From positions 2,081 to 66,080 of the IMG/VR virus record IMGVR_UViG_3300032216_001376: 64,000 nt of DNA; one strand, given 5' to 3'. A program made the position numbers and the translations under genes. Below the pieces are notes generated by a model, which was not told the DNA's origin, did not search any database, and saw only the letters and a list, made by a program, of their open reading frames with translations. Origin of the DNA: a virus. Lineage: Duplodnaviria > Caudoviricetes. Below are positions 33,608 through 49,303 of this stretch, in pieces; positions within the stretch are counted from its first letter, which is position 1, and the number at the start of each line of letters is the position of its first letter.

Positions 33608-33638
33608 AGATACATCTAAACAACAAAGGAAATACACC

Positions 33639-33929
33639 ATGATTACAAGATTTGACCCACTAGCAAAAGCAAGACAAGAAGAGCACGAGCGTGCCGAGGC
33701 TTGTTATGAGCGTGTAATGAGTGCTGAAGCCCACGAGGCAGTAAGTTTGCCTTACAGTTTTGAGACGGTTCCAATGAATTACCGTGCGCCTACGCCACGT
33801 CTTTCGGACGAGCAAAAAGAAGAGCAAAGACGCAAGTCTCTTGCTATCAAAAAGGCAAACGGCGACCTTTTCAGGTCTATTTGTAAGGACTTAGGGATTG
33901 AACTATTAAGTGACGAGGAGATTCAATAA
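33639..33929 (+). CDS. Early hypothetical protein (96 aa)
   Basis: AAAGGA RBS. Confidence 0.65.
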   Translation: MITRFDPLAKARQEEHERAEACYERVMSAEAHEAVSLPYSFETVPMNYRAPTPRLSDEQKEEQRRKSLAIKKANGDLFRSICKDLGIELLSDEEIQ

Positions 33930-34063
33930 TGTTTTACATCATGCTAGGCGGTTCAATAGTCGCACGGTTTTATAACGAGTCACAGGCACAAGCCTACCTT
34001 GCCGGCATAAGCGCCGAAGAGTTGTCGGTTTGGGATTATCGCATCGCAGTACAACCCTATTAA
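33929..34063 (+). CDS. Early hypothetical protein (44 aa)
   Basis: Manually translated; TAATG coupling. Confidence 0.55.
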   Translation: MFYIMLGGSIVARFYNESQAQAYLAGISAEELSVWDYRIAVQPY

Positions 34064-34078
34064 CTGAAAGGATACACA

Positions 34079-34213
34079 ATGGACTATGAGTACTTAGTTG
34101 TATACGTTGACAAGAGCGGTGAACAGGTATCAATACCGTTTTACAATTTAAAGCACGCAAAGAAGTACGCCAAGGTAACAGGCGGTTTAATCATCGACAT
34201 TAGGAGAAATTAA
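34079..34213 (+). CDS. Early hypothetical protein (44 aa)
   Basis: Manually translated; GAAAGGA RBS. Confidence 0.6.
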   Translation: MDYEYLVVYVDKSGEQVSIPFYNLKHAKKYAKVTGGLIIDIRRN

Positions 34214-34214
34214 C

Positions 34215-34589
34215 ATGGCACTACTAGACATACAGCCGGAAGTAAACCCAATCGAGTACACGCACTTTGACAGTTGGTTTGAGTACGAGGAGGGCGACGA
34301 GGAGGACGGCCACTACATGGACGCAGAGGACGCAACGCCTCAGCAGTTGTCGGACCAAGCCAACGACATCTTAGACTCGTGGGAGGATACACTCAGCATT
34401 AAAATCGACAGGGAGGGCTTGGACTTTAGCACGTGGGACGCAGTGTACGATTCATTTGGCACGGTTGCATTTCAAGTCGCTGAGGCTGGGTACGACGTGT
34501 ACGTGTCCGACGAACAGGGCTTTATTGAGGTGTACAAAGAAGTAGAACCAACATTTATTATTCACAAGGGAGAAGCATATGGCATCTAA
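34215..34589 (+). CDS. Highly acidic early protein (124 aa), possible DNA mimic
   Basis: 32 D/E versus 4 K/R by hand count; AGGAG RBS. Confidence 0.6.
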   Translation: MALLDIQPEVNPIEYTHFDSWFEYEEGDEEDGHYMDAEDATPQQLSDQANDILDSWEDTLSIKIDREGLDFSTWDAVYDSFGTVAFQVAEAGYDVYVSDEQGFIEVYKEVEPTFIIHKGEAYGI

Positions 34590-34794
34590 ATTTGAGGTAC
34601 AGACAGAGTTTTTGTACGGGTGGGAGAACGTATGGACGGACGAACGGGGCAACCCAACAACGTACGACACCAAGGAAGAGGCGGAGAAAGAACTCGAAGA
34701 GTTTATTGCCTGCACCCTTGTGGACTTCCAAAACGGTGACCTAGAGGAGCCGTACGACATAGAGCAGTACAGAATCGTCGAGGTGGCACAATGA
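34579..34794 (+). CDS. Acidic early hypothetical protein (71 aa)
   Basis: FEVQT....GWEN.W..E...P.T..T.EEAE.EL motif. Confidence 0.65.
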   Translation: MASKFEVQTEFLYGWENVWTDERGNPTTYDTKEEAEKELEEFIACTLVDFQNGDLEEPYDIEQYRIVEVAQ

Positions 34795-35000
34795 AAAACA
34801 CGTACATTGACGAAGAGGTAGCCATCGAGGTGGGGTGGCAGTTGGACCATTTGCTGCAAGGTCACCCAAGGGCGAGCGCAAGGCACCTAATATGTCAAAT
34901 CGCTGAAGGCATCATTGCACAGGGCGTAGTGAACTCAGAGACTGAGGACATCGACGAGGTTATCAACCAGTACTTAATTGAAAGCGGATACATTAAATGA
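34791..35000 (+). CDS. Early hypothetical protein (69 aa)
   Basis: ATGA coupling. Confidence 0.6.
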   Translation: MKNTYIDEEVAIEVGWQLDHLLQGHPRASARHLICQIAEGIIAQGVVNSETEDIDEVINQYLIESGYIK

Positions 35001-35293
35001 AGGCATCTATACACGACGTAAGACTCACTAACAGGGTCACCATTACATTAATTTTTAATCTTGATACAGACCAATGGATTATCATCAACGACGGCACTAG
35101 GGGCTCTATACGGGGTCGTCTGTGGCAATCAGGCGCAGACCATAGAGAGCGCACCCACCACCATTTTTGGATTGGTTCACGTGACTATGAAATGGTTATT
35201 GACCCCACTGAGGACGGCACGGCGTGGGAGACGTTTAGTTTTTTTGACATTAAGAAACAAGAGTACATACAGGGCGCAGAGGGCACAATATGA
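34997..35293 (+). CDS. Early hypothetical protein (98 aa)
   Basis: ATGA coupling. Confidence 0.55.
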   Translation: MKASIHDVRLTNRVTITLIFNLDTDQWIIINDGTRGSIRGRLWQSGADHRERTHHHFWIGSRDYEMVIDPTEDGTAWETFSFFDIKKQEYIQGAEGTI

Positions 35294-35505
35294 AAATAGC
35301 AATGAATCGAAATAGGCACGTTGAAAAGATATTGAATGAAAAAATGCCGTGCACGGGCTGTGAGCACGTCCACAGGTGCGGGCTTGACCTTAAGGCCTGT
35401 GCAGACTTTAAGAAGTACTACAACACGGGTCGGTTTGAGGCTGATACGGTGCGCAAGCCAACACGTGAGTTGTACGTAAAAATATTTTGGGACGGCAGAG
35501 ACTAG
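35290..35505 (+). CDS. Early Cys-rich (putative Zn-binding) protein (71 aa)
   Basis: PC.GC....RC.....AC..F..YY..GRF. Confidence 0.6.
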   Translation: MKIAMNRNRHVEKILNEKMPCTGCEHVHRCGLDLKACADFKKYYNTGRFEADTVRKPTRELYVKIFWDGRD

Positions 35506-35569
35506 GCTCACTTTATGAGCCACAGACCCGATACAATAGAATCTTAATAACAAAGAAAGGAATACAACC

Positions 35570-35737
35570 ATGAAAAAGTATAGAATTTATATTGAAGTAA
35601 AATCAATTATCACTAAAGATATAGAGGCGGTAAACGACCAACACGCTGAAACATTGCTCAATGATTTAGATATACAAGCCATGTACGGCAATGGTGGTCA
35701 AGCAGACGCATCTGTTTATAAAATGGAGGAAATTTAA
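35570..35737 (+). CDS. Early hypothetical protein (55 aa)
   Basis: Manually translated; GAAAGGA RBS. Confidence 0.6.
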   Translation: MKKYRIYIEVKSIITKDIEAVNDQHAETLLNDLDIQAMYGNGGQADASVYKMEEI

Positions 35738-35739
35738 TT

Positions 35740-36024
35740 ATGAAACGAAACCATAGACTAGCATTTAACGCACTTAAGAAGATTGGTGCGCCGGTGTACG
35801 AGCGCAGTGACTTAGAGAATTTTCAGATTAGTGCTGAGGGTTTGGGTAGTAGGTCAGCCTACGAAGGGTACAAAGACTACATTATGTGGGCTAGTTTTTA
35901 TGAGGGGCCTGACATTGCCCACTGGGAGTTTGGTATTAATCCGTTGATTACGGATATATTAAAGAAGTATGGGCTTCATGCCGAGTGGATTAACGCAGGA
36001 GAGATAGGAGTTTACAATGATTAA
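35740..36024 (+). CDS. Early hypothetical protein (94 aa)
   Basis: F.ISAE...W..FY..FGINP.I..IL.KYGL..EWIN.GE.GVY pattern. Confidence 0.65.
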   Translation: MKRNHRLAFNALKKIGAPVYERSDLENFQISAEGLGSRSAYEGYKDYIMWASFYEGPDIAHWEFGINPLITDILKKYGLHAEWINAGEIGVYND

Positions 36025-36316
36025 GGAAGAGGTAATGGACGACTTGAGAGAGTCGGAGTTGGGCAGGGTCATGGGACGTGTAAGATACACCTACACATCA
36101 CCAACCCACTGGTGCAAGGACGGCATCTGTCAGGTGACCCTGAACTACGGATGGATGGAGAGGCCTGATATCAGCATGCATTGGGGCAGTGGTGGCGTTA
36201 ACAGGGGCTACAGTGAGCGTGAGATAGCCGACGCCATGTCGGAGGCGTTTAAGATGGCATCAAAGCGCCTTGAGAAGTTAGAGAGGATTGTTAAAATAGC
36301 ACAGGGGGAAGCATGA
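36017..36316 (+). CDS. Early hypothetical protein (99 aa)
   Basis: Overlap coupling with neighbours. Confidence 0.6.
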   Translation: MIKEEVMDDLRESELGRVMGRVRYTYTSPTHWCKDGICQVTLNYGWMERPDISMHWGSGGVNRGYSEREIADAMSEAFKMASKRLEKLERIVKIAQGEA

Positions 36317-36486
36317 ACGACTTAGACTACAACGACTTGGTACTGCTGTCACGTGCGCTGTATTGGTACATTGACAGGGTGTCGAACACGGAGCGTCAGA
36401 TGGGGCGTGACGACTCCGAATGGGACAGAGCCATGTGGCTGAAGCAAAAAATTGCACATAAAATTGAACAGGATGCGTTTATATGA
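36313..36486 (+). CDS. Early hypothetical protein (57 aa)
   Basis: Manually translated; ATGA coupling. Confidence 0.55.
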   Translation: MNDLDYNDLVLLSRALYWYIDRVSNTERQMGRDDSEWDRAMWLKQKIAHKIEQDAFI

Positions 36487-36601
36487 GAAATATTTTTATT
36501 AAAAGGACCACCTTTATGGATTATTTGTATGCTACAATATTCAGTATTGCAGTCGGTTGTACATTAGCAGTTGTTTATTTATATAAAATAGGAGAATTAC
36601 C

Positions 36602-36868
36602 ATGGTGAATATTATTGACGAATTAGGCGCAGTAAACCAAGCAATCAAAGAGTTAGAGGCTACCGCACGTAAACTCAAGGCAGAGTTAATCGCTCGTGGC
36701 GTTGGGACGTACGACGGCGAGCAGTACATTGCAGAGGTGCAGTCATACGACCGTGCTAACATCGACGCAACGTTGGTACGTGAGTTGGCTGACGAGGACT
36801 TTATCAGCCAAGTAACAAAGATTCAGCACGTTAACGCCGTCGTTGTTAAGATGCAAAAGGCAGTTTAA
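36602..36868 (+). CDS. Hypothetical protein (88 aa)
   Basis: AGGAG RBS; IDELG...I.EL.A...LK..L N-terminal helix. Confidence 0.65.
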   Translation: MVNIIDELGAVNQAIKELEATARKLKAELIARGVGTYDGEQYIAEVQSYDRANIDATLVRELADEDFISQVTKIQHVNAVVVKMQKAV

Positions 36869-37443
36869 TGAAGGACAAGGACCTGCTGACGACTTACTTA
36901 CAGGGGATGCTCGCTGAGGACATCGGCGGGCTTACCAAGGAGCAGGAGTACAAACTGTCTGAGCAGATAGGCAAGGGTGACACGGACGCATTAAACACGC
37001 TGATACGCCATAACTTACGGTTGGTTGTCTTCATGCTTAGGAAGACAACGGCGTGGCAACACAGCATCATACCCCCCGAGGACTTGGTGCAGATGGGCAA
37101 CGTCGCACTGGTGCTCGCAGCAAGGCGTTGGACGCCAACGAAGGGCGCACGGTTTGCCAGTTACGCCGGCAATTATATTTTGCGGTTCGTGACACGAGAG
37201 TTGGACAACACGGAGCGCACCATTAGGCTACCGATTAACATCGTCGAGGCGGTCAAGAAGATGAACTACATCGAGCGACAGTTAAGGCAGGCCCTTGGAC
37301 GGGAGCCAAAGATTAAAGAACTGGCGGACGCTATGGACGTATCGACCAAGCGAATCAGTCAGTTAAGGGGGTACGTTATGCGTGAGCCCATCTCACTAGA
37401 AGCATTTTTAAATGACAGGCACGAGGAAACAAACGATGAGTAA
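36868..37443 (+). CDS. Phage sigma70-family factor, regions 1.2-3 only (no region 4)
   Basis: LTKEQE..L...G...A...LI.HNLRLVV; EDLVQMGN.AL..AA.RW.P.KG.RFASYA; RTIRLP; LGREP...ELA; stops after EPISLE. Confidence 0.85.
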   Translation: MKDKDLLTTYLQGMLAEDIGGLTKEQEYKLSEQIGKGDTDALNTLIRHNLRLVVFMLRKTTAWQHSIIPPEDLVQMGNVALVLAARRWTPTKGARFASYAGNYILRFVTRELDNTERTIRLPINIVEAVKKMNYIERQLRQALGREPKIKELADAMDVSTKRISQLRGYVMREPISLEAFLNDRHEETNDE

Positions 37444-37768
37444 CACACTGGAGTTGACCCAAGAACAAAGAAAGGCCTACGACCGATTCATCAGGGCACG
37501 TGACAAGGTGCGCAAGGGATCGAAGTGGGTCAAGCCGTCACCCATAGAGTCGTCGGTCGACATCGAGGGGTTTAACCACCCGTTCTACGTCGCCAACGAG
37601 GCCTATCAGGAGTACATGGACGCCTTCATGGCGTGGCTAGACATCGAGCCCAAGTTCAGGGACGCCGAGCGCATGAGGGCAAGCAGGGGCGACTACGGAC
37701 TGGCGGACAGTTGGGAAGACAAGGTGAGCAGGGCGCAGGACACATACAGCAAACTAAAGGAGGGGTAA
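37436..37768 (+). CDS. Hypothetical protein (110 aa, likely start MSNTLEL)
   Basis: Overlaps the sigma stop codon; GAGG RBS. Confidence 0.6.
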   Translation: MSNTLELTQEQRKAYDRFIRARDKVRKGSKWVKPSPIESSVDIEGFNHPFYVANEAYQEYMDAFMAWLDIEPKFRDAERMRASRGDYGLADSWEDKVSRAQDTYSKLKEG

Positions 37769-37986
37769 TGGACGCTAAGAAAGACAGCATGGGTGTTGCA
37801 AATCTGTACGACATCCACGACAAGGACGGGAACCTGACACGTATCGAGGTCGTCGACTCGGAGGGTGAGTTCGTCTTTGACATAATTTGGGACGAGAACG
37901 ACTCGCAGTCCCAAGAAAATCGAGCCAACTTCCGCAGGTGGTCCAAGGAGGTTGTTAGACGATACGGTTATATAGTTGCCGATTGA
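37768..37986 (+). CDS. Hypothetical protein (72 aa, MDAKKDS...)
   Basis: GGAGG RBS; TAATG coupling. Confidence 0.6.
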   Translation: MDAKKDSMGVANLYDIHDKDGNLTRIEVVDSEGEFVFDIIWDENDSQSQENRANFRRWSKEVVRRYGYIVAD

Positions 37987-38016
37987 TATAACTAAAAGTA
38001 GTATAAAGGGGCAAAT

Positions 38017-38137
38017 TTGTACCACTAGTACCACTAGTACTACTCTTTTATTCTTTTTATTCTTTTTAAAAAAATAAAATAAATATATGGGGGTAATAGT
38101 CAAACTAAGTGGTACAAGTGGTACTAGTGGTACAAAT
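38017..38137. repeat. Inverted repeat copy 2 (ori/pac-like)
   Basis: Reverse complement of 30982-31092 with a few substitutions and one extra ACCACTAGT unit. Confidence 0.85.
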
Positions 38138-38180
38138 AAAAAACTTTATTATTAACTATCAAGCACTTAGAAAAATTGAC

Positions 38181-38360
38181 ATGGTAAACGAGCACGACAT
38201 AGAAGACTGGCACGAGAAGCCAAAGAAAGAGCCCCTAGGAGGCGTTAAGGTACCCACTGGCTACCTACCCCTTAACTTCTCATTAAAACCGCTCCTAGGC
38301 CCCGCTATTGGCCTCCAAATCGATTTTGCAATTAAACCCTACAAGGAACCCAATGTATAA
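38181..38360 (+). CDS. Hypothetical protein (59 aa)
   Basis: ATG at 38181 in the ORF-track frame. Confidence 0.4.
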   Translation: MVNEHDIEDWHEKPKKEPLGGVKVPTGYLPLNFSLKPLLGPAIGLQIDFAIKPYKEPNV

Positions 38361-38514
38361 ACTATACGACGAGGACAACAACTACATGCGGTGGGTGGCA
38401 CGTAAGGAAGAGGCGCGTGCTATACTGGACACCCATACGGACTGGACGGTGCGTTTTGTTAGGATGGAACGTAAAGTCGTCGATTTGACAACCTTCGAGG
38501 AGGCACCATTTTGA
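38353..38514 (+). CDS. Hypothetical protein (53 aa, MYKLYDED...)
   Basis: AAGGA RBS; ends EEAPF. Confidence 0.6.
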   Translation: MYKLYDEDNNYMRWVARKEEARAILDTHTDWTVRFVRMERKVVDLTTFEEAPF

Positions 38515-38684
38515 AAACGATCGCAATTTTTATGGCAGCATTTATCTGTGGCTTTGTGATGTTCATCACCGCACTGCCCGAGAAGCAGACCGTATGGAAG
38601 TTAAAGAACTGTGAGTTGGCTGAGATTAGCCCTGACTTCACACCGAAAGAAAAACAAGATTGCAGAATAGCGAGGAAGAAATGA
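38511..38684 (+). CDS. Small secreted/membrane protein (57 aa, TTG start)
   Basis: Hydrophobic N-terminus; C..AEISPDF...K..CR; GGAGG RBS. Confidence 0.55.
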   Translation: MKTIAIFMAAFICGFVMFITALPEKQTVWKLKNCELAEISPDFTPKEKQDCRIARKK

Positions 38685-38863
38685 AACAAAAAGAACTTAT
38701 GAGTTTAGAAAATCCATTTGGTTTAGCACCACTTAAAGGCGAGGGTATGCTTGTTGACCCTGATATGGTTACGTTCCAATGTGATTGTGAAAAATGCCAA
38801 GAAGGTTATCGTAAATGGAAAGCTGATTACTTAGCAGAACAAAAGGAAGCGAGGAAGAAATGA
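38681..38863 (+). CDS. Hypothetical protein (60 aa) with C.C..C
   Basis: Starts inside the 16-bp junction repeat. Confidence 0.6.
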   Translation: MKQKELMSLENPFGLAPLKGEGMLVDPDMVTFQCDCEKCQEGYRKWKADYLAEQKEARKK

Positions 38864-39009
38864 TAACTAAAGAGCAAGCATTAATAAATGTTAACAAAAA
38901 AATTTTAGACCAAAACTATGACCTAAAAGCTCAATGCGAAGGGTATAGAAAAATTGTTAAAAGGTTGGAAGTAAAAATTAAATCATTAAAGAAAGCGAGG
39001 AAGAAATGA
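38860..39009 (+). CDS. Hypothetical coiled-coil protein (49 aa)
   Basis: Manually translated; bounded by junction repeats. Confidence 0.55.
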   Translation: MITKEQALINVNKKILDQNYDLKAQCEGYRKIVKRLEVKIKSLKKARKK

Positions 39010-39251
39010 AAAAAATATTTGGATGTAATTGTAGAGAAGAGTTGCATGAACTAAAAATGAGAATAGATTTTTTAGCAAACCGTTTAGATTATCAGACAGA
39101 TGATTATTGGTTTTATATGGGCGAAAGACCAGCGGCACCACTTGAAACTGTTGTGCGTAGAATAGCAAATCATTTAGGTATGCAGATACACAGGCAGTCA
39201 GCGACAGAAGTAACATATAGAACTGAATTTAAAAAAGGAAATGATAAATGA
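39006..39251 (+). CDS. Hypothetical protein (81 aa)
   Basis: Starts inside the junction repeat. Confidence 0.6.
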   Translation: MKKIFGCNCREELHELKMRIDFLANRLDYQTDDYWFYMGERPAAPLETVVRRIANHLGMQIHRQSATEVTYRTEFKKGNDK

Positions 39252-39430
39252 TATTTACATTTGCAAAAGAAGGTGATGGCACGGTTTATGAAGAGAACCA
39301 AGTCAACGTGGGTATGGAATTTAAGGCAGTCAGGCTAGATGAAATTGTGGCTAACTTTGAAGACTTCTTGCGTGGCTGTGGGTTTGTGTTTGAAGGACAC
39401 TTGGACTTTGTTGTGGGGGATGAGAAATGA
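39248..39430 (+). CDS. Hypothetical protein (60 aa)
   Basis: EF.A..LD.I...FEDFLRGCGFVF.G motif common in phages. Confidence 0.7.
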   Translation: MIFTFAKEGDGTVYEENQVNVGMEFKAVRLDEIVANFEDFLRGCGFVFEGHLDFVVGDEK

Positions 39431-39822
39431 CTGCATTTAAAGAATTTGCCATTGGTAAGTTTGTATTACGGTTCTACAAGACCGACCATGTGTGGACTTG
39501 CACGGTTACGGAAGATATGTTGGATGAAGTAAAGAAAGAACTAGCACTACAAAGGCTATCTGATATTGGTCAAGAGATTGAAGACCGAGACTCTGCTATA
39601 TATGCAACAGGTTACTGGAAAGGCATTGAGTATAAAAAGCAACATGACGAACTACAAACCCTAGTCAAGTCATTCTTTGAGGACTACTTAAACTACGAAG
39701 AGGAATCGGATAGTGGTCGAGTGTTTAACCCTATCCATGTAAGTTGTACTCGTGCCATGATGATTGAACCATTGGCTAAGTTGTTAATGCGTATGAAAGA
39801 ACTGTCGGGGGTGAAGGAATGA
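39427..39822 (+). CDS. Hypothetical protein (131 aa)
   Basis: ATGA coupling; ALQRLSDIGQEIE motif. Confidence 0.6.
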   Translation: MTAFKEFAIGKFVLRFYKTDHVWTCTVTEDMLDEVKKELALQRLSDIGQEIEDRDSAIYATGYWKGIEYKKQHDELQTLVKSFFEDYLNYEEESDSGRVFNPIHVSCTRAMMIEPLAKLLMRMKELSGVKE

Positions 39823-40094
39823 GTAAGCCAATAGGGTGGATAGATACATTTGAATTAATTGAATTTGAGGATGCTTTTTGGATTGAAATTTCTCCATATA
39901 AAACAGATACTTTTAAAACTCCTCTTTACACCCACCCAATGCGTGAACTAACAGATGAGGAAATCATGGAAGTGCTTATTGAAGAAGGTATTTATGTAAA
40001 CCTAAAAGGTGGAAGTTTTGCAGCATATCAAGCAGATGCTGATTTACATAAGTTTGCAAGAGCAATACTAAAGAAAGTAAGTGAACGTGCATAA
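39819..40094 (+). CDS. Hypothetical protein (91 aa)
   Basis: PLYTHP.RELTDEEI...FARAIL.K motif common in phage accessory genes. Confidence 0.65.
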   Translation: MSKPIGWIDTFELIEFEDAFWIEISPYKTDTFKTPLYTHPMRELTDEEIMEVLIEEGIYVNLKGGSFAAYQADADLHKFARAILKKVSERA

Positions 40095-40270
40095 AAGTGT
40101 ACACAAACCCTAAAAAAAGGTAGGGAAAGTGTAGATTTGTACGAAAAAGTGTGTAAGTGTAAGAAAAAGTTTGAGTTTCCAAGTAATTGTACGATTTTGT
40201 GTGTTGTACGGAAAAAAAAGTTGTTCACGTTACGTGAACAAAATAAAAAATTGTACGTTTTTGTGTATTA
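40095..40270. repeat. AT-rich iteron-like region: TTGTACG x4 and a 21-bp palindrome TTGTTCACGT-T-ACGTGAACAA
   Basis: Repeats at 40137, 40187, 40204 and 40250; palindrome at 40221-40241. Confidence 0.65.
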
Positions 40271-40337
40271 TATTGAAATGATAAAAAAATACTGGAGTGA
40301 CTGGAAGGTCGTTGATAAAATTAAAATAGGAGGAATT

Positions 40338-40673
40338 ATGGCAGAATATATACCAGATAGGTGGCAGGTTGTTAACTTAAAAATAGACGAACTGGACGTC
40401 GACAAGGTGATGGGCAGTTGGTACGGTGGCTTCTTGGGATCGGACAACTGGCGTCTGAGCTCGGGCATCGTCGAGGTGGTTGAGAAGGACACCTACTACG
40501 AGGTTCATAACCAGTCAGGCAGCGTGTACATGTGCCACAAAAAGTCACAGGGCATGAGCGCCTACACCGCGCAGGTTTTCTTGGACTTTGAGAAGCAACT
40601 CAAAGAACAGGGCGGGTCGTTAGAAGTGTGCGACATGGCTAACATTTTGGACAAATATCAACATAAATGTTAG
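40338..40673 (+). CDS. Hypothetical protein (111 aa, MAEYIPDRWQVV...)
   Basis: AGGAGG RBS; Y.PD.W.V...W.GG.L.SD.WRL.SGI...SGS.Y.C motif. Confidence 0.7.
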   Translation: MAEYIPDRWQVVNLKIDELDVDKVMGSWYGGFLGSDNWRLSSGIVEVVEKDTYYEVHNQSGSVYMCHKKSQGMSAYTAQVFLDFEKQLKEQGGSLEVCDMANILDKYQHKC

Positions 40674-40688
40674 TCGCGTCACACATTT

Positions 40689-40702
40689 TTTGCATTAATA
40701 TA
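40689..40702 (+). promoter_or_regulatory. Phage middle promoter, class B (TTTGCATTAATATA) before the primase gene
   Basis: Perfect 14-mer, one of four. Confidence 0.7.
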
Positions 40703-40721
40703 GGCAACTGAAAGGATAAGA

Positions 40722-43043
40722 ATGTCAGATAGGCCAGTAGCACTACCAGTACTGTTTCAAAACATACCCTACGAGCTCAAGAAGATACCCCGTTGGGTGA
40801 TGTGGCGTTTTATGGAGGTTGGCGCCTCGGACAACAAGCGATGGAGCAAGATACCAGTCAGGCCCACCGGCGAGCAGGCTAAGGCCAACGACCCGAGCAC
40901 GTGGGTGGACTTTCTGTCGGTCCAAGAGGCGTATAACTCAGGCAAGTTTGACGGCGTGGGCTTTGTGTTCACGGACGACGACAACCTAGCCGGTGTGGAC
41001 TTGGACGACTGCTTTGACCACCAGTCTGAGCGTTTCACAAATGCTGCACTGCAACAAATTGCCGACAAGGTCGTCGGCTACATGGAGATTAGCCCGTCGG
41101 GGACTGGCGTTAAGATATTTACGCGGGCCAACCTAGGCGCGGCGCACGTCGACCACGCCTTAGGACTGGAGGTGTACAACCGCGGGCGCTACTTCACGGT
41201 GACGGGCCACCACCTGTCAGGCGAGATACCGGCCGACGAGCAGGACATCACGTCCTTCGTGCCGGAGCGTATCATCCACCGGACTGGCGACGCGTTTGCA
41301 GACTACGTGCCACCACTGGAGGGCTACGACCTGCACAGGGTGGAGACTGAAATACTGGCCCAATTAGACCCGAACTGTGGGTACACGGACTGGTTGCAGG
41401 TAGGCTTCGCGCTACACCACCAGTTCTCAGGCGACCTTGAGGCCTTAGAGTTATGGGAGAATTGGAGCTTTGGCAACGGTGACGTGGCGAACTACGTGGA
41501 GTCAGGCCCCATGAGTTGCGAGGGGAAGTGGTCCACGTTTAGGGGTCAGGGCTCAACGCTACGCTCGTTGCTGTTCAAGGTTAATCAGGAGGCGCGCAAG
41601 GAGGCCATGGCTAGGGGCGAGGTTATACTGGACAACGCCAGCCCGCTGAACCACGCCAAGAACTTCTTAGACAACATGTTCTCGTGCGAGGAGGGCTACC
41701 GGCTCGTGCACTACGCCGACGAGTTTTTTGTGTACGTGTCGACGCACTATGAGTTGATCGAGGAGTCAACGGTCCGATCGAAGCTGTACGCCTTCTTGGA
41801 CAAGTGCAAGAAGTCAGGCAAGAAGGGCGAGCTGATGCCGTTCAACCCAACCCCGTCTAGCGTGTCGGCCGCAATGGACGCGGTGAAGGCCATCACGCAC
41901 TTGGCCAACCACCCGAACACAAAGCCGCCGATTTGGTTGTCGGGCTACGAGGTTAACCGCCCCGAGGCGTCGCAGCTGGTCAGTTTAAAGAATGGCCTGT
42001 TTCACCTGAAGGACTCGGCGGTACTGCCGCACTCGTTGGGGTTCTTTACGCAGAACGCCCTGCCGTTTGAGTACAACCCAAGGGCGCTGTGCCCGTCGTG
42101 GATGAAGTTTTTAGACGACCTGTGGGGCCACGACCAAGAGTCGATCGACTGCCTGCAGGAAATGTTTGGGTACATCCTGAGCGGTGACACAACCCAGCAG
42201 AAGTTTTTTAACCTGATTGGCCCACGTCGTTCGGGCAAGGGAACGATTAACAAGGTGCTCGTGAGCCTGCTAGGTCAGCACAACACGGTCGCGCCACAAA
42301 TGGAGGAACTCTGTGATACTTTCGGTCTTCAACCTTGGTTGGGTAAGCTACTCGCTTCTTTCACCGACGCCCGTGCCCCTGAGCGTAACCGTAGTGCTGT
42401 TGTCTCTCAACTCCTTAGAATTAGTGGCGGCGACACTGTTACAGTCAATCGAAAGAACAAGGAAGCATGGAACGGTTACCTGCCAACGCGAATTGTAATC
42501 TACTCCAACGAGGCATTACAGCTGACGGAGAACTCCAACGCGCTCACCGGTCGTATGATTGTCTTAAAGATGGTGAACGACTTCTACAACAAGGAAGACT
42601 CTACGCTGTCAACAAGGCTCGAGGCCGAGCTTAGTGGCATCTTTAACTGGGCGATGGAGGGGCTTTCAAGACGACTGGCGCGCGGTGGCTACTTCTTACA
42701 GCCAAAGAGCGGGCAGGAGTACTTAGACCTGATGCAAGAGATTGGCAACCCGATGAGCACGTTCGCAGAGGACGCCTTAGAGTTTGATCCGGCGGCGTTT
42801 GTCACCAAGGACGACGTGTTTAACTGCTACAACCATTGGGCGATTAAGAAGAAGATGCCGGTGGGGACTGAGATGGCGTTTAAGCGTAGGTTCTTGGCGT
42901 CCACGCAGGAGCACAGGGTTACGACCGACCTGATACGCGAGGCCGGCGACAGGAAGCACATTTACAGGGGCGTGCGCTTGAACAGCAAGGCACAGAAGTA
43001 CATTGAGACAATTGGAAGCAGTTTTGACACGGAGATATTTTGA
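40722..43043 (+). CDS. Primase-polymerase (AEP/prim-pol) + PriCT + D5-type SF3 helicase (773 aa)
   Basis: GVGFVFT...GVDLDDC; E.SPSGTG.KIF; LEVYN.GRYFTVTG; Y.DWL.VG.ALH; GPRRSGKGT Walker A. Confidence 0.9.
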   Translation: MSDRPVALPVLFQNIPYELKKIPRWVMWRFMEVGASDNKRWSKIPVRPTGEQAKANDPSTWVDFLSVQEAYNSGKFDGVGFVFTDDDNLAGVDLDDCFDHQSERFTNAALQQIADKVVGYMEISPSGTGVKIFTRANLGAAHVDHALGLEVYNRGRYFTVTGHHLSGEIPADEQDITSFVPERIIHRTGDAFADYVPPLEGYDLHRVETEILAQLDPNCGYTDWLQVGFALHHQFSGDLEALELWENWSFGNGDVANYVESGPMSCEGKWSTFRGQGSTLRSLLFKVNQEARKEAMARGEVILDNASPLNHAKNFLDNMFSCEEGYRLVHYADEFFVYVSTHYELIEESTVRSKLYAFLDKCKKSGKKGELMPFNPTPSSVSAAMDAVKAITHLANHPNTKPPIWLSGYEVNRPEASQLVSLKNGLFHLKDSAVLPHSLGFFTQNALPFEYNPRALCPSWMKFLDDLWGHDQESIDCLQEMFGYILSGDTTQQKFFNLIGPRRSGKGTINKVLVSLLGQHNTVAPQMEELCDTFGLQPWLGKLLASFTDARAPERNRSAVVSQLLRISGGDTVTVNRKNKEAWNGYLPTRIVIYSNEALQLTENSNALTGRMIVLKMVNDFYNKEDSTLSTRLEAELSGIFNWAMEGLSRRLARGGYFLQPKSGQEYLDLMQEIGNPMSTFAEDALEFDPAAFVTKDDVFNCYNHWAIKKKMPVGTEMAFKRRFLASTQEHRVTTDLIREAGDRKHIYRGVRLNSKAQKYIETIGSSFDTEIF

Positions 43044-43267
43044 TGAATAAAGAAGCGCAGGAAGCATACAGTAGATGGAAGAAACAGCATACGGTCGACA
43101 TGCAGGTAAGAACCGACGAGCAGATGTTCGCTGTTGGCTTTGAGGAGTGCCAAGGGGTTGTTAAAGAACTGACCGAGTTGGTGCTCGACTTGGAGAAGGA
43201 AAACAAGCGACTGGACGCCATGGTAAAGAAACTACAGAAGGAGTTAAAGAATGCCAAAAAAGTTTAA
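43040..43267 (+). CDS. Hypothetical coiled-coil protein (75 aa)
   Basis: Coupled to the primase stop codon. Confidence 0.6.
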   Translation: MMNKEAQEAYSRWKKQHTVDMQVRTDEQMFAVGFEECQGVVKELTELVLDLEKENKRLDAMVKKLQKELKNAKKV

Positions 43268-43811
43268 CTACTACCACGTCGACGCCGGCCACTTCAAGGT
43301 GCAGATTAAGCTTTGCTTTGATCAGTTGGAGTTTCAAAAGATACTGCAAGACCACGACATCAAGGCCAAGACAACCGCACTGGACGCCGGCATAGCGGAG
43401 ACACACTACCTGTCAGACGGTCGTGAGGGCATCATCATCTTGGTGTTTGACTTGGCAGAGTGCGACGAGAACCCAGCCTATCTAGCCGGCGTGATTGCGC
43501 ACGAGGCCACGCACTGTGTCTGCAGGATATTTGAGCATATCGGCGAAGAGGTTGAGGACATCGGCGAGGAGTCGCGCGCCTACTTGACGGAGCACATTGT
43601 CATGCAGCTAACGCAGGCCGTCATTACAGAGAAAGAAAAGCATGCTGGAAAAGGAAATCGAGCAGCACCTAAGCAAAAAGGTAAAGGCACTGGGCGGACT
43701 AAGCTACAAGTGGATCTCAACGATAACGGGGGTCCCAGACCGGATAGTTATATACAGGGGCCGGCTGTGGTTAGTGGAACTGAAAACACAAACCGGACAA
43801 ATATCTTCTAG
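43251..43811 (+). CDS. Hypothetical protein with HEA.H (HExxH-like) motif
   Basis: GVIAHEATH.V.RIFEHIGE....EE.RAYL; C-terminus overlaps the VRR-NUC gene. Confidence 0.55.
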   Translation: MPKKFNYYHVDAGHFKVQIKLCFDQLEFQKILQDHDIKAKTTALDAGIAETHYLSDGREGIIILVFDLAECDENPAYLAGVIAHEATHCVCRIFEHIGEEVEDIGEESRAYLTEHIVMQLTQAVITEKEKHAGKGNRAAPKQKGKGTGRTKLQVDLNDNGGPRPDSYIQGPAVVSGTENTNRTNIF

Positions 43812-43914
43812 GCAGGAGCTGGTATTTAAAGAACTGGAGGCTCACGGGTTTCCGGTGTTAATCATTCGCAGCAAAGAAGACGTAAATGATTTTATAGGGC
43901 GAATTAATGAATAA
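43642..43914 (+). CDS. VRR-NUC domain nuclease
   Basis: LEKEIE...G..YKW...GVPDRIV....VELK...G..S..Q. Confidence 0.9.
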   Translation: MLEKEIEQHLSKKVKALGGLSYKWISTITGVPDRIVIYRGRLWLVELKTQTGQISSRQELVFKELEAHGFPVLIIRSKEDVNDFIGRINE

Positions 43915-43928
43915 CATTGCATTAATAG
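43896..43928 (+). promoter_or_regulatory. Phage late promoter, class A (AGGGCGA-N16-GCATTAATAG) before the HNH gene
   Basis: Matches the motif and spacing. Confidence 0.7.
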
Positions 43929-44019
43929 ATATAGAGGTAAGCGAAAAGACCGGCCAGTCCCGTTATGCCATTAACATAACTAGCACCTCTACTATCAATT
44001 ACTTTAATGGAGTATCACA

Positions 44020-44484
44020 ATGAAACAATGCAAAGTTTGCAATACCACAAAACCTGTGTCTGAATTTTTTAAAAAAAATAATAGCAAATCTGGATATCAG
44101 GGTAAATGTAAATCTTGTTCGGCAAAATACAAAACAGAATATAGTAAAACTAAACGTGGGCATTTATCTAGCTATCTTTCTGATAGCAAACATAGAGCCA
44201 AAGAAAAAAATTTACCCTTTAATTTAGATTTAAAATATTTAGAAAGTATTTCTACAAATGAATGTCCCATTTTTAAAACAACATTTGATTGGGGCAGAGA
44301 TAAAAAGGGGCAGGGTAACGAACGACCATCATTAGATAGAATTATTCCAGAGTTAGGTTATATAAAAGGCAATGTGGCTTTTATTTCTATGTGGGCGAAT
44401 TCAATTAAACAAGATGCAACAGAAAAAGAATTGTACGCTGTCGCTGATTGGATACATGAAAAAAGAAAATATGTTAAAACGTAA
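44020..44484 (+). CDS. HNH-type homing endonuclease with N-terminal Zn finger
   Basis: CKVC...CKSC; CPIF; PSLDRIIPELGYIKGNVAFIS.WAN.IK. Confidence 0.8.
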   Translation: MKQCKVCNTTKPVSEFFKKNNSKSGYQGKCKSCSAKYKTEYSKTKRGHLSSYLSDSKHRAKEKNLPFNLDLKYLESISTNECPIFKTTFDWGRDKKGQGNERPSLDRIIPELGYIKGNVAFISMWANSIKQDATEKELYAVADWIHEKRKYVKT

Positions 44485-45808
44485 CCAATTACACAAATAC
44501 CAGCTTGATATAATAAATAAAGCCAAGACAACGCCTAACTTAGCATTATTTTTGGACATGGGACTAGGCAAGAGTGTAACAACTTTAACAATTATTGCCG
44601 AACAATTTGAAGGCACAACCCTTATTGTGGCGCCAAAACGGGTAGCGGAATCGGTATGGGAACAAGAAACTAAAAAATGGGAGCATTTATGTCATCTAAA
44701 GGTAGCGAAAGTAATGGGGACACCCAAGCAAAGGCAGACAGCATTAGAAAGTTCATCGAACATCTATGTAGTCAATCTCGAGAATTTAGTGTGGCTGTTA
44801 GAGCAGGGGAAAAAGTTCGACAATCTAGTGATAGACGAGAGCAGCCGGTTCAAGGATCCGAGCACGAAAAGGTTCAAGGCGCTGAAGAAGCACTTGAAGT
44901 CTTTCAAGCGGAGGTTGATATTGACTGGGACGCCGTCGCCGCAAGGTTTACAAGACCTATGGAGCCAGGTTGGTATACTGGATTTGGGACAGAGGCTGGA
45001 GACGAGCCTGACAAAGTTTAGGGATAAGTACATGGACCCCGGTCAACGTAACAGACACACCGGCGTGGTTTATAATTGGGTACCAAAGCCAACCAGTAGT
45101 TTACTTATACAGAATAAAATAAACGACATATGCTTGTCACTAAAAGCCGGTGATTATTTACAATTACCGACATTAAGTAACATTTACCATCAAATTGAAA
45201 TTGACACTAATGTAAGGAAACAGTATGACGAACTTAGAAAAGACATGGTGCTTAGTACAGATACGGGGAGTATCACAGCTACAACAGCAGCGACGTTGGC
45301 GGGCAAGCTACTCCAATTCACCAGCGGCGCAATTTATGCGGAAGATGGAACAACGCAGGAAATACACAGTGCTAAATTGGAATTCCTTACTGAGATCTTG
45401 GAAGGTACTTCAACGCCCACGCTTATTTTCTACCACTTTAAACATTCGCTGCAACGATTACGAATTCAATTCCCAGAGGCGGTGGTGCTGGACAATGACA
45501 ACATTGAGGCGTGGCAAAGTGGTAAAATTCGTTTGCTCTTGGCCCATCCCCAAAGTTTCGGAGTCGGCGTCAATCTTCAGTGCAACATTGGTGACACAGC
45601 ACAAATCGTGTGGTGGGATTTACCGTGGTCTTCAGAAAACTACACGCAAGGGAACGCTAGGGTACACCGCCAAGGGCAAAAAGTCCCGGTTATCATACAC
45701 CATTTAGCCATAAAAAATACAATTGATGAACGTGTCATAAATGTGCTTGAAGGTAAAATTAATATTCAAGAAGCTGTTTTAAAATCCCTAAAATTTGCAT
45801 TAATATAA
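44471..45808 (+). CDS. SNF2-family helicase (likely start MLKRNQLHKYQ)
   Basis: LDMGLGKSVTTL, VIDESS, LTGTP, G.G.NLQ, Q.NAR.HRQGQ. Confidence 0.9.
   Translation: MLKRNQLHKYQLDIINKAKTTPNLALFLDMGLGKSVTTLTIIAEQFEGTTLIVAPKRVAESVWEQETKKWEHLCHLKVAKVMGTPKQRQTALESSSNIYVVNLENLVWLLEQGKKFDNLVIDESSRFKDPSTKRFKALKKHLKSFKRRLILTGTPSPQGLQDLWSQVGILDLGQRLETSLTKFRDKYMDPGQRNRHTGVVYNWVPKPTSSLLIQNKINDICLSLKAGDYLQLPTLSNIYHQIEIDTNVRKQYDELRKDMVLSTDTGSITATTAATLAGKLLQFTSGAIYAEDGTTQEIHSAKLEFLTEILEGTSTPTLIFYHFKHSLQRLRIQFPEAVVLDNDNIEAWQSGKIRLLLAHPQSFGVGVNLQCNIGDTAQIVWWDLPWSSENYTQGNARVHRQGQKVPVIIHHLAIKNTIDERVINVLEGKINIQEAVLKSLKFALI
45794..45807 (+). promoter_or_regulatory. Phage middle promoter, class B (TTTGCATTAATATA) before the sigma region-4-like gene
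   Basis: Perfect 14-mer overlapping the helicase 3' end. Confidence 0.7.
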
Positions 45809-45813
45809 GCACA

Positions 45814-46125
45814 ATGAAAAAAATAATACTGTACAAATTAAGCGCCGCAAAAACCCGTCTTTCAGACGAAGAAGTTGACCCTATTGAGCAGGATGACTCT
45901 GACTCACACCCGGAGATCATCACGGATGGTTGGTTACCGTGGGACGCTGAGGATATTAGGGACATAAAACGCCTGATTGAAGAAAAGATGCCGGGGAAGC
46001 AGCGCGTCGTTATGGAGGCATTTTTAGAGGGAAGGACACACAGCGAAATTGGTGTTACAGAAAAGCACTGGCGCTGGCATTTTTACAAGGGCGTAGAATT
46101 TATTAAGGAGGAGTTAAAGCTATGA
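45814..46125 (+). CDS. Stand-alone sigma70 region-4-like HTH protein (103 aa)
   Basis: Acidic linker, then IKRLIEEKMPGKQRVVMEAFLEGRTHSEIGV...HF.KGVEFIKEEL, resembling sigma 4.1-4.2 with a shortened HTH. Confidence 0.6.
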   Translation: MKKIILYKLSAAKTRLSDEEVDPIEQDDSDSHPEIITDGWLPWDAEDIRDIKRLIEEKMPGKQRVVMEAFLEGRTHSEIGVTEKHWRWHFYKGVEFIKEELKL

Positions 46126-47274: not shown

Positions 47275-47437
47275 AATGATGGATAGGGCCGACGCAAGCC
47301 CCAAGCTAGACCCTAAGCGAGCTGAGTTAGCAAGCGCAATCACCAAGACGTTCTTAAACAAGGTAATGCCAGACATTAAGGCAACACTGGCGCAAGTTGA
47401 AGGAATGAAGAAGCCCGAGGGCGGAAAGACTGAGTAG
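47255..47437 (+). CDS. Hypothetical protein (60 aa)
   Basis: ORF in operon. Confidence 0.55.
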   Translation: MSNLLNKMMDRADASPKLDPKRAELASAITKTFLNKVMPDIKATLAQVEGMKKPEGGKTE

Positions 47438-47450
47438 TTTGCATTAATAG
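47418..47450 (+). promoter_or_regulatory. Phage late promoter, class A (AGGGCGG-N16-GCATTAATAG)
   Basis: Exact motif; drives the small basic protein and terS-like island. Confidence 0.75.
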
Positions 47451-47512: not shown

Positions 47513-47665
47513 ATGGCAAAGCCAGGACTATACGAAAATATTCACCGAAAGCAAGAGCGCATCAAGGCCGGCTCGGGTGAAAAAATGCGCAAGGCAGGAG
47601 AAAAAGGCTCCCCATCCGCTAAAGACTTTAAAGAGTCGGCTAAAACAGCAAAGAAACCAAAATAA
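47513..47665 (+). CDS. Small basic protein (50 aa, MAKPGLYENIHRKQERIKAGSGEKMRK...)
   Basis: Manually translated; strong AAGGAGG RBS; family usually seen in virion modules. Confidence 0.8.
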   Translation: MAKPGLYENIHRKQERIKAGSGEKMRKAGEKGSPSAKDFKESAKTAKKPK

Positions 47666-48048
47666 TGTCAGCCAAATTTAAGTTTACAAAAGAACACGCA
47701 CAGGAAGTACTAGAGCTTGGCAAGCGGGGAGCATCCCAAAAGACTATGTACGCAACCCTTGGCATTAGCAAGGCCACCGCCGCTCGCCTTAAAAAAGAAG
47801 ACTCATTTTTTGCTGAATCCATGGACTTAGCGACGGTACACGGGCAAGCGTTTTGGGAGTCACAACTCCTAGCAAACATCGAAAATAAGGCCTATAACAG
47901 CCGCTTGGCTGAGATTGCTCTTAGGGGTCAATACCCTGATGACTACCGTGAGACACGCGAGCAGAAGATCGACGTTAAGGCTGACGTTAACATTGACTTT
48001 AAGGGTGCGGTGGATGATTTGATCAAAAAGTTAAAGGCTGCAGCATAA
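47665..48048 (+). CDS. terS: Probable terminase small subunit (HTH)
   Basis: N-terminal HTH (G.S.K.MYATLGISKAT), F.E....A....Q.FWE, N......L....P.DYRE, C-terminal beta strand. Confidence 0.6.
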   Translation: MSAKFKFTKEHAQEVLELGKRGASQKTMYATLGISKATAARLKKEDSFFAESMDLATVHGQAFWESQLLANIENKAYNSRLAEIALRGQYPDDYRETREQKIDVKADVNIDFKGAVDDLIKKLKAAA

Positions 48049-48081: not shown

Positions 48082-48109
48082 AAAGGGTCCTTCGGGGCCC
48101 TTATTTTTT
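48082..48109 (+). terminator. Intrinsic terminator after the terS island
   Basis: AAGGGTCC-TTCG-GGGCCCTT followed by ATTTTTT. Confidence 0.75.
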
Positions 48110-48120
48110 GCATTAATATA
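48107..48120 (+). promoter_or_regulatory. Phage middle promoter, class B (TTTGCATTAATATA)
   Basis: Perfect 14-mer before the DUF2800 gene. Confidence 0.7.
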
Positions 48121-48148: not shown

Positions 48149-49303
48149 ATGACGGCTCACGCACTTCTATCAGCCTCCGGCAGTAAACGATGGCTGACCT
48201 GCACCCCAAGCCCCCGCCTCGAGGCAACACTTCCCGAACTAAAAAAACCAGTTAACGCATTTGACTTTTCAGCCGAAGGGACACTGGCCCACGAGTTAAG
48301 TGAAATTCGTTTAAGACTTTACTTCAACCAAATAACCCAATCAGATTATGACAATCAGTACAAAGAGATTAAAAACCATCCAATATACACAAAGTACGAA
48401 GATAGTGAAAAGGCAGACTTTGAGGCGAACGTTGACAACTACGTACTCTACGTACGCTCACAGGTTGGCGAGGGGGACACACCACTATTTGAGCAACGTG
48501 TCGACTTCTCTGACTGGGTTAATGACGGATTTGGCACGGCCGATGTGGTTATACTTTCTGAGCACACCATTCGCGTCATCGACCTCAAGTTTGGAAAGGG
48601 GATACCCGTTTCCGCAACCGACAATCCCCAACTCAGACTCTACGCCCTTGGAGCCTACTCAAAGTTCAAGGAGGAGTACCCCAACATCAAAGAGGTTGAG
48701 TACACCATCCACCAGCCCCGACTTGACTCCATCAGCACCGACGGAACGACCATTTCCAAGCTCCTCGACTGGGCGAACTACTTCGTCAAGCCCAAGGCCA
48801 AGAAGGCGTGGGCCGGCTCCGGCGAGTTTGTCCCCGGCGATCACTGCGGCTTCTGCAAGGCCAAGGCGCAGTGCCGCGCCCGCAGCGATTTTAACACCGA
48901 GCTCGCCAAAAACGAGTTCAGGGAGCCAGCCCTTCTCACCGAAGAAGAGATCTCCGAGGTACTCAGCAAAGCCCAGCAATTAAGGACGTGGGCCGGTGAC
49001 GTAGAAGAGTTTGCGCTTAACCGCGCGGTCCTTGAAAACAAGGTACCCACTGGCTACAAGCTTGGCACAACGTCAGCGCACCGTAAGATTACAGACACAG
49101 AGTTAGCGTCGGTTATTTTAAGAGAGCGTGGATTGTCCGAGCAGGAGCTATACGAGCCAAAGAAGTTAAAGACAATCGCCAACCTAGAAAAGCTTGCGCC
49201 TAAGGGCATAGTTGTTGGCTGGCTAGGCGACCTGGTGCAAAAGCCTGAGGGCTCACCAAAGCTTGTCAAGGTTAAGGAGACTGCCGAGGAGGATTTTAAA
49301 TGA
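48149..49303 (+). CDS. DUF2800 PD-(D/E)XK (Cas4-like) exonuclease
   Basis: HALLSASGSKRWL.C.PS; EGTLAH; FGTAD...IDLKFGKG..V.A.DNPQL.LYALG; PG.HC.FCKA...CRAR. Confidence 0.9.
   Translation: MTAHALLSASGSKRWLTCTPSPRLEATLPELKKPVNAFDFSAEGTLAHELSEIRLRLYFNQITQSDYDNQYKEIKNHPIYTKYEDSEKADFEANVDNYVLYVRSQVGEGDTPLFEQRVDFSDWVNDGFGTADVVILSEHTIRVIDLKFGKGIPVSATDNPQLRLYALGAYSKFKEEYPNIKEVEYTIHQPRLDSISTDGTTISKLLDWANYFVKPKAKKAWAGSGEFVPGDHCGFCKAKAQCRARSDFNTELAKNEFREPALLTEEEISEVLSKAQQLRTWAGDVEEFALNRAVLENKVPTGYKLGTTSAHRKITDTELASVILRERGLSEQELYEPKKLKTIANLEKLAPKGIVVGWLGDLVQKPEGSPKLVKVKETAEEDFK

Follow-up and report, generated by a model that had tools for sequence, protein, structure and literature searches.

A probable two-polypeptide sigma factor and two matching promoter classes in a group of uncultured freshwater phages

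Analysis of a 64,000-nucleotide stretch of phage DNA (the window, comprising 64,000 of the 66,080 bases of the IMG/VR virus record IMGVR_UViG_3300032216_001376; Duplodnaviria, Caudoviricetes) points to a sigma factor that is divided between two polypeptides. P0001, the product of what we call the sigma-N gene, carries the sigma70 regions up to the start of region 3.2, and P0002, the product of the sigma-4 gene further downstream on the same strand, is predicted to carry a region-4-type domain. Two classes of promoter-like sites accompany these genes and have a common core; class B lacks a -35 box, and class A has a box of the GGGCGG type exactly 16 nucleotides (nt) upstream of the core. We are fairly confident that a two-protein sigma of some kind is encoded here. 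The whole of the best explanation, in which P0001 alone serves class B and P0002 is required for class A, is in our judgment somewhat better than an even bet. The original prediction, made from the letters of the window, had proposed both a split sigma and a two-step promoter cascade driven by it; the split is supported by the domains, the fold, the co-occurrence of the genes, and the promoter classes, whereas class A promoters proved not to be confined to late genes.

Results

P0001 ends in region 3.2

36868-37443, plus strand: sigma-N gene, encoding P0001 (191 amino acids [aa]); regions 1.2, 2, and 3.0-3.1, the start of 3.2, and an acidic tail of 13 aa

P0001 is a sigma70-family protein that ends in region 3.2, as had been claimed; the Pfam matches, the alignment to RpoD, the hhalign comparison, and the fold agree on this. 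In Pfam, Sigma70_r2 (PF04542) scored 30.6 bits (cut-off, 24) and Sigma70_r3 (PF04539) scored 34.9 bits (cut-off, 25.3), with region 1.2 falling under its cut-off; no genuine region 4 was found, and the sole region 4 match (13.3 bits, below the cut-off) lay on the helix-turn-helix of region 3. The protein belongs to the RNA polymerase sigma factor family of PHROGs (E value, 1.9e-30). BLASTP aligned residues 17 to 183 with residues 350 to 515 of Salmonella RpoD (E value, 5e-27), the alignment ending with EPISLE against EPISME(-TPIGD) and a few residues of the 3.2 linker; hhalign with a full-length sigma profile (99.9%) covered columns 9 to 170 of 269 and ended at the SLD of region 3.2. The AlphaFold model has a predicted local distance difference test (pLDDT) score of 80, with residues 174 to 191 forming a disordered tail, and matched sigmaS and sigmaA chains with an E value of 5e-9 at approximately 30% identity.

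The stop codon lies 13 residues past the EPISLE motif that opens region 3.2. Approximately 90 clusters of relatives (44 to 85% identical to P0001) were found, all of about 190 aa and all with REP(I/V)SL(D/E) and a 13-residue acidic tail at the end; none of them has a region 4, and the full-length sigmas among the search matches were <40% identical. The shared end point of these clusters means that the truncation is not peculiar to this genome. E127 and N124 are invariant in the family and align with the E and H of the RpoD motif PVHMIE; these correspond to E458 and H455 of Escherichia coli sigma70, which lie in region 3.0 and have been described as recognizing the TG of extended -10 elements.

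P0002 is predicted to have a region-4-type fold

45814-46125, plus strand: sigma-4 gene, encoding P0002 (103 aa); conserved acidic disordered segment (RLSDEE.DP.E.DD), then a region-4-type helix-turn-helix

The sigma-4 gene had been read as encoding a linker like region 3.2 followed by a region-4-like helix-turn-helix. The acidic segment is indeed conserved and the C-terminal domain is predicted to have a sigma region-4-type fold, whereas the likeness to region 3.2 is not significant: the best match of the N terminus to RpoD, DDSDSH-PEIITD against DDEDSHLGDFIED, starts at RpoD residue 515, where the P0001 alignment ends, with an E value of 0.55. In the model of P0002, residues 1 to 40 are disordered and residues 45 to 103 (pLDDT, approximately 90) form three helices. 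When this fold was compared by VIA-align with 48,161 representative PDB chains, 23 of the 25 top entries were sigma chains, matched over their region 4 part (Z, 8.3 to 6.1); examples are region 4 of SigR, with a root mean square deviation of 2.0 Å over 57 residues, and region 4 of SigE on -35 DNA (Z, 7.8). Domains of the LuxR/NarL type ranked lower (Z, approximately 5). Foldseek also had sigma region 4 as its top matches, but with E values of approximately 0.5.

At the sequence level, P0002 weakly matched a sigma family in PHROGs (E value, 0.011), and Sigma70_r4_2 was detected in 12 of 29 relatives (best E value, 3.6e-5) and in 4 of 18 distant relatives. The family comprises 57 clusters at 90% identity. 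In its alignments, the N-terminal acidic motif (R/K)LSDEE.DP.E.DD is invariant among close relatives and is the best-kept feature in distant ones; the conserved C-terminal part reads MP.KQR.ILEAFLEG.TY.DI.VTEKYWRYHF.KG.EFIKKEL, and residues E83, K84, W86, and R87 of the recognition helix are invariant. The original prediction had cautioned that the helix-turn-helix looked about 4 residues short, and this is borne out by a gap in the hhalign alignment at the first helix, which was not predicted as helix. The N terminus alone had no match in the PDB. A candidate relationship in which the N-terminal motif would duplicate the C-terminal tail of P0001 was not supported, as hhalign (A4 versus A3) gave no such match.

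Complex prediction of P0002 with residues 831 to 1057 of the beta flap of E. coli, which served as a substitute for that of the phage's own host, gave a score of 0.47 (best control, 0.11), which we take as a weak indication of binding. In the calibration, 58 of 80 solved complexes came up to this mark, as did 2 of 110 mismatched pairs; with scores of 0.60 or under, only 7 of the 80 solved complexes did so, along with both of the mismatches. The runs agreed in at least 33% of contacts, and the pLDDT of the partners was at least 60. The score may reflect likeness to sigma region 4-flap complexes that have already been solved.

The two genes occur together in a fixed order

The complementary domains, region 2 in P0001 and the region-4 fold in P0002, are on two separate polypeptides throughout the relatives examined. 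When 1.84 billion representative proteins were searched exhaustively with a profile of the P0002 family, 34 clusters were recovered; among them there was no fusion of P0002 to a sigma and no full-length sigma, and the members found were 33 to 129 aa long, plus one protein of 229 aa. The latter, P0192, was considered as a possible sigma fusion and rejected; it is the product of a low-coverage contig and has an OMP-decarboxylase domain. For P0192 and another distant member, P0196, the contigs are too short to give a gene context.

Of the 22 sigma-4 loci that extend 10 kb upstream, 21 have the N-terminal half (18 within the locus and 3 at 10.5 to 11.7 kb upstream on the contig), and of the 43 sigma-N loci that extend approximately 10 kb downstream, 42 have the sigma-4 gene (37 directly, 4 further along the contig, and 1 already identified when that contig was scanned for sigma-4). 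In the single exception on each side, the contig ends too early. Wherever a locus has both genes, the N-terminal half is upstream and the C-terminal half downstream, on the same strand and 5.8 to 11.7 kb apart. Both promoter classes likewise recur among the relatives.

Two promoter classes have a common core

40689-40702, plus strand: class B (TTTGCATTAATATA, without a -35 box), before the primase gene (40722-43043)
45794-45807, plus strand: class B, in the last codons of the SNF2 helicase gene and before the sigma-4 gene; kept in relatives
48107-48120, plus strand: class B, before the DUF2800 gene and directly 3' of a terminator hairpin (48083-48102)
49990-50003, plus strand: class B, before the gene (50070-50588) for an Enc34-type single-stranded DNA-binding protein (SSB)
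43897-43927, plus strand: class A, GGGCGA-N16-GCATTAATAGATATAG, before open reading frame (ORF) 44020 and the SNF2 helicase operon running into the sigma-4 gene
47419-47449, plus strand: class A, GGGCGG-N16-GCATTAATAGATATAGG, before the small genes 47513-47665 and 47665-48048
30941-30971, minus strand: weak class A-like site, CGGCGG-N16-GCATTAATG, heading the terminase operon
28215-28245, minus strand: class A, between the large terminase and portal genes; position kept in 20 of 21 distinct relatives
25032-25062, minus strand: class A (core GTATTAATA), before the late genes 23383-24369 and onward
21109-21139, minus strand: class A, downstream of the head protein gene and before 20487-21014
6864-6894, minus strand: class A-like site with the degenerate box GGGCTT, before 5932-6813

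The core GCATTAATA occurs 10 times in the window, against 0.78 expected. Its perfect 14-mer form, TTTGCATTAATATA, is present in four copies, directly before the primase, P0002, DUF2800, and SSB genes, exactly where class B had been placed. A search for GGGCGG-N16-core with up to 3 mismatches returned 8 matches (1.4 expected), 7 of them promoter-like; in these seven class A sites, the box or a near match lies 16 nt 5' of the core, and (G/A)A(T/A)ATAG follows. Five of them precede virion operons on the minus strand. The other two are on the plus strand, at 43919 and 47441, before operons of the replication region; the claim that class A precedes late genes thus holds for the virion operons and is too narrow for the class as a whole.

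Among relatives, 58 distinct class A sites give the logo tAGGGCGgatt-N-TTTGcATTAnTAtAtATAGGa, and 100 distinct class B sites, which often stand immediately 3' of a terminator hairpin, give TTTGCATTAnTATA. A total of 107 GGGCGN boxes were located up to 40 nt upstream of a core, and the distance was exactly 16 nt for 102 of them, in keeping with the two classes and the fixed spacing described for the window. Such rigid spacing would suit an element that is read by a protein fixed on the polymerase. The alternative that GGGCGG is one arm of a degenerate terminator hairpin was rejected, as the sequence and its distance are conserved and no conserved complementary arm is present. If TG-c-ATTAnT is taken as an extended -10 element, the distance from box to hexamer would be 18 nt, and the conserved ATAGG would fall at approximately +1.

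The base n of ATTAnTA, the seventh of the core, is A, G, or T depending on the lineage; it is uniform within a genome, and the variants follow clades, one of which has TGCGTATTAGT(A/G) in place of TTTGCATTA. Variation of this kind suggests coevolution of the sigma with its -10-like element, although shared descent confounds any comparison of the base n with sigma residues.

Several features of individual sites were also noted. Class B sites often begin in the T-run of a strong GC-rich hairpin (GGGTCCTTCGGGGCCC-TTATTTTTT-GCATTAATA), as at 48083-48120 and in many relatives; hairpin and promoter may form a compact terminator-promoter unit that insulates successive operons. A copy of AGGGCGG at 40609-40615 precedes the core of the class B primase promoter by 76 nt, far from the canonical 16 nt. 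The first gene behind the class A site at 47441, 47513-47665, encodes a lysine-rich protein of 50 aa and has a strong ribosome-binding site, AAGGAGG.

Promoters of the two sigma genes

31104-36867, plus strand: early region 5' of the sigma-N gene; its coding strand has no phage-type promoter, and host RNA polymerase presumably transcribes it

The two genes differ in the promoters that precede them. On the plus strand between 31100 and 38800, there was no TTTGCATTA-type site besides in-frame chance 9-mers. For 42 of 53 relatives, a relaxed promoter pattern had no match on the 5' side of the sigma-N gene, and its 11 matches in the others were not promoter-like. The early block upstream of the gene has sigma70-like candidates only. 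Because no phage-type promoter is found upstream in the window or in the relatives, the N-terminal half is probably made by host RNA polymerase.

For the sigma-4 gene, the nearest promoter on the 5' side was class B in all 83 distinct contexts with a recognizable promoter and was never class A. Where class B is directly upstream, 47 of 49 distinct contexts have the ATG 13 to 19 nt (mode, 14) 3' of the G of GCATTA; in the window the distance is 17 nt. No Shine-Dalgarno sequence was seen before this ATG in the window or in the relatives. The helicase gene ends within the class B promoter, its stop codon being 6 nt 5' of the P0002 ATG. The arrangement points to a P0002 mRNA that may be leaderless or nearly so, or to translation coupled to that of the helicase gene. 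The class A site at 43919 would drive the helicase operon, which runs into the P0002 gene, and would thereby create positive feedback.

Genome layout and relatives

28245-29690, in the minus-strand block: large terminase
25286-28183, in the minus-strand block: portal
21197-22114, in the minus-strand block: head protein
40722-43043, plus strand: D5/PriCT-type primase
44372-45808, plus strand: SNF2 helicase
48149-49303, plus strand: DUF2800 nuclease
50070-50588, plus strand: Enc34-type SSB

The block on the minus strand from 643 to 30,949 consists of virion genes, as judged from a scan of its large proteins, and also includes the tail fibers. On the plus strand, a block from approximately 32,000 to 54,900 begins with small early genes and continues with replication genes, among them those for a ribonucleotide reductase and a family A DNA polymerase. 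Ten large proteins of the virion strand were scanned and had no match to an RNA polymerase family; the remaining ORFs were not all scanned. The window has no tRNA genes.

A DNA search of a 10.5-kb region against GenBank phages gave no match, which leaves no close phage at the DNA level, and a tblastn search of phages with P0002 (E values up to 1) also gave no match, leaving no cultured relative at hand. The small subunit, P0002, has family members on 557 IMG/VR contigs, and the carriers appear to be a widespread group of uncultured freshwater phages. Only 4 contigs from metagenome-assembled genomes carry the gene, in bins assigned to Bacteroidetes (2), a betaproteobacterium, and a gammaproteobacterium; the strong Shine-Dalgarno sites in the window lean away from Bacteroidota as the host.

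The early block that holds the sigma-N gene is flanked by 90-nt inverted repeats (31014-31103 and 38015-38104; 86% complementary), each arm having an inward-facing sigma70-like TTGAC(C/T)-N16-TATTTT; transcription from the right copy would run antisense to the early genes. On the 5' side of the early genes, a control region (31299-31630) is dense in repeats. Two tandem 32-nt copies at 31321-31384 end in CACTGGGGCGGT, which has the GGGCGG hexamer of the class A box inside, and a 47-nt pair (31484-31583), a 31-nt pair, and a 22-nt pair are present in the same region. These repeats could be an origin or an operator array and might possibly offer extra sites for the sigma-4-like protein.

Discussion

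A proposed stepwise sigma

In the mechanism that we propose, host RNA polymerase would make P0001 early, and P0001 would bind the core enzyme and read the phage's extended -10-like element TTTG(C/T)ATTAnTA. Class B promoters (those of the primase, DUF2800, SSB, and P0002 genes) would fire with P0001 alone. P0002 would then add the missing acidic linker, resembling region 3.2, and the region-4 domain, which would sit on the beta flap and read AGGGCGG exactly 16 nt upstream of the core; class A promoters (of the terminase, portal, head, and tail operons and of two early-strand operons) would need P0002 or be strongly boosted by it. The completed sigma would turn on the late genes, and its own supply would be reinforced through the helicase operon. 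We infer the binding of P0001 and P0002 to the core enzyme, the flap, and DNA and, above all, the action of P0001 alone at class B.

The layout agrees with a cascade: the N-terminal half has a host-type setting, the C-terminal half is behind a promoter without the box, and the virion genes are behind promoters with it. That P0001 alone might serve class B is plausible because sigma70 without region 4 initiates at TG-extended -10 promoters, where the flap contact is dispensable. A stepwise cascade is plausible and fits this layout, and we give it slightly less than an even chance. Tentatively, stepwise assembly of the sigma could act as a developmental clock of the phage, with middle promoters lacking a -35 element, one of them giving rise to a leaderless or nearly leaderless P0002 mRNA, used first, AGGGCGG-N16 promoters of virion genes used next, once P0002 has docked on the flap, and feedback passing through the helicase operon; this, too, we put on the doubtful side of even.

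Several observations weigh against the proposed mechanism. In sequence, the assignment of P0002 to region 4 is weak: the protein itself has no Pfam match, searches of PDB profiles with two alignments of its family gave chance-level matches only, and hhalign of the family with full sigmas, although it placed the whole of region 4 in register, did so with E values of 0.01 to 0.035 and a probability of only 1 to 4%. The likeness of the P0002 N terminus to region 3.2 (DDSDSH versus DDEDSH) is colinear but lacks statistical support. Classes A and B have a common core, and nothing in the sequence indicates that class A could not also fire without P0002; two class A promoters serve nonstructural genes. 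No clear plus-strand terminator was found between the two sigma genes, so the first P0002 might come from read-through or from translational coupling to the helicase gene, in which case P0001 would not have to act alone. Finally, the strongest conservation of P0002 is in its N-terminal motif, which hints at a general role in the holoenzyme and thus favors an obligate heterodimer.

An obligate two-subunit sigma without a cascade is the alternative to which the last of these points leads. Both proteins would be needed at every phage promoter, with P0002 carrying the 3.2 finger and the flap anchor; the first P0002 would come from read-through by the host enzyme or from coupling to the helicase, and the box would only strengthen or delay promoters. 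That the acidic motif, and not the DNA-reading helix, is the best-conserved part of P0002 would fit a role in core binding or initiation everywhere, and the lack of a clear terminator between the genes, together with the position of the helicase stop codon inside the class B promoter, would make such a supply possible. SigO-RsoA needs both of its subunits. The same is described in a preprint review for the pairs of T4 and SPO1 (bioRxiv 10.64898/2026.10.01.756105). Against this, the P0002 gene keeps a box-less promoter of its own at a narrow distance and never has class A as its nearest promoter, an arrangement that read-through would make unneeded, and P0001 retains region 3 with the TG-reading glutamate, which is equipment for initiation independent of a -35 element. 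On balance, we consider an obligate pair unlikely, if still a serious contender.

P0002 might instead not be a sigma subunit; it could be a free activator of the sigma-4/LuxR-GerE type that recruits the P0001 holoenzyme from GGGCGG or a decoy that occupies the flap to the detriment of host -35-dependent transcription. Weak profile matches to GerE and FixJ helix-turn-helix domains, the presence of LuxR/NarL domains in the fold list, and, as a lead only, small stand-alone Sigma70_r4_2/GerE proteins in bacteria would all suit such a role, and the rigid 16-nt spacing is compatible with a class II-type activator. However, sigma region-4 domains stand clearly above LuxR-type domains in the fold comparison (Z of approximately 8 versus approximately 5), P0002 strictly co-occurs with a sigma that is missing exactly this domain, the conserved acidic linker ahead of the domain is sigma-like, and the box is at the -35 position, 18 nt from ATTAnT; we judge a role as activator or decoy to be quite improbable. 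It would be more surprising still if the two genes were unrelated, with P0001 a complete -10-only sigma like T4 gp55, another factor reading GGGCGG, and P0002 doing something else. The weak sequence evidence for region 4 in P0002 leaves some room for this, as does an interaction between P0001 and P0002 that is derived indirectly, but the near-perfect co-occurrence, the sigma-4 fold, and the complementary domains, whose colinear RpoD matches meet at residue 515, make it very improbable. The two-polypeptide sigma, with P0001 acting alone at class B and P0002 recruited for class A, is the reading that we prefer.

If the halves do act in sequence, they would form a simple natural timer from a modular sigma70, in which -10 reading comes first and -35 reading later, and potentially a ready-made orthogonal promoter pair for synthetic biology. 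The system would be a natural test of in vitro findings that extended -10 promoters can be used without region 4 and without the flap contact, and it bears on the role of the 3.2 finger when this is on a separate chain. Given the abundance of the family in IMG/VR, the mechanism would apply to a large uncharacterized group of freshwater phages.

Comparison with known systems

Known two-subunit sigmas include T4 gp55/gp33, Bacillus subtilis SigO-RsoA, and Tn916 Sig7-Sig8 (bioRxiv 10.64898/2026.10.01.756105). SPO1 gp33/gp34, often cited as a split sigma, is not used as a precedent here, because a 2026 paper describes gp33 as an inhibitor that binds sigma-A and gp34 as the late sigma (PMC13401047). 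Literature searches found no description of the present split-sigma family.

The original prediction likened the system to T4 gp55/gp33. The likeness would hold in that, as in T4 gp55/gp33/gp45, two small proteins would replace the host sigma, one doing the job of region 2 and the other occupying the flap, and would time the late genes. The sigma-2 piece of T4 can by itself drive basal transcription from promoters with a -10 element only. The likeness does not extend to the proteins and promoters in detail. T4 gp55 resembles region 2 only, whereas P0001 keeps regions 1.2, 2, and 3; T4 gp33 has no sigma-4 fold and binds no DNA, whereas P0002 has a predicted sigma-4-type helix-turn-helix and is accompanied by a box at a fixed distance. 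The late promoters of T4 lack a -35 element and are activated through the sliding clamp, whereas class A promoters have a conserved, rigidly spaced upstream box and give no indication of clamp dependence.

SigO-RsoA (YvrI-YvrHa), reportedly characterized as a two-subunit sigma by MacLellan et al., and Tn916 Sig7-Sig8 likewise give the functions of region 2 and region 4 to one holoenzyme from two polypeptides. These are extracytoplasmic function (ECF)-like or small sigmas encoded by adjacent, coexpressed genes, whereas the sigma described here is group-1/2-like and its genes are distant and under different promoter regimes. In SigO-RsoA, the small protein presumably supplies region 2, while here the small protein would supply 3.2 and region 4. 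No sequence relationship to SigO-RsoA or Sig7-Sig8 was found.

A parallel to the activity proposed for P0001 is E. coli sigma70 without region 4, which needs neither a -35 element nor flap contact to start at TG-extended -10 promoters; such region-4 truncations and extended -10 promoters are said to have been studied by Kumar et al. 1993, Barne et al. 1997, and Kuznedelov et al. 2002. That truncation is engineered, whereas that of P0001 is natural, is conserved in hundreds of phage contigs, and is paired with a separate region-4 protein. Few two-subunit sigmas are known to us, and we know of none in which a group-1/2-like sigma is split in the 3.2 linker with the parts under different promoter regimes. 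The features that set the present system apart are therefore the group-1/2-like character of the sigma, the cut within the 3.2 linker, the placement of the whole of region 4 on a separate protein, the gap of 5.8 to 11.7 kb between the genes, and the two matching promoter classes.

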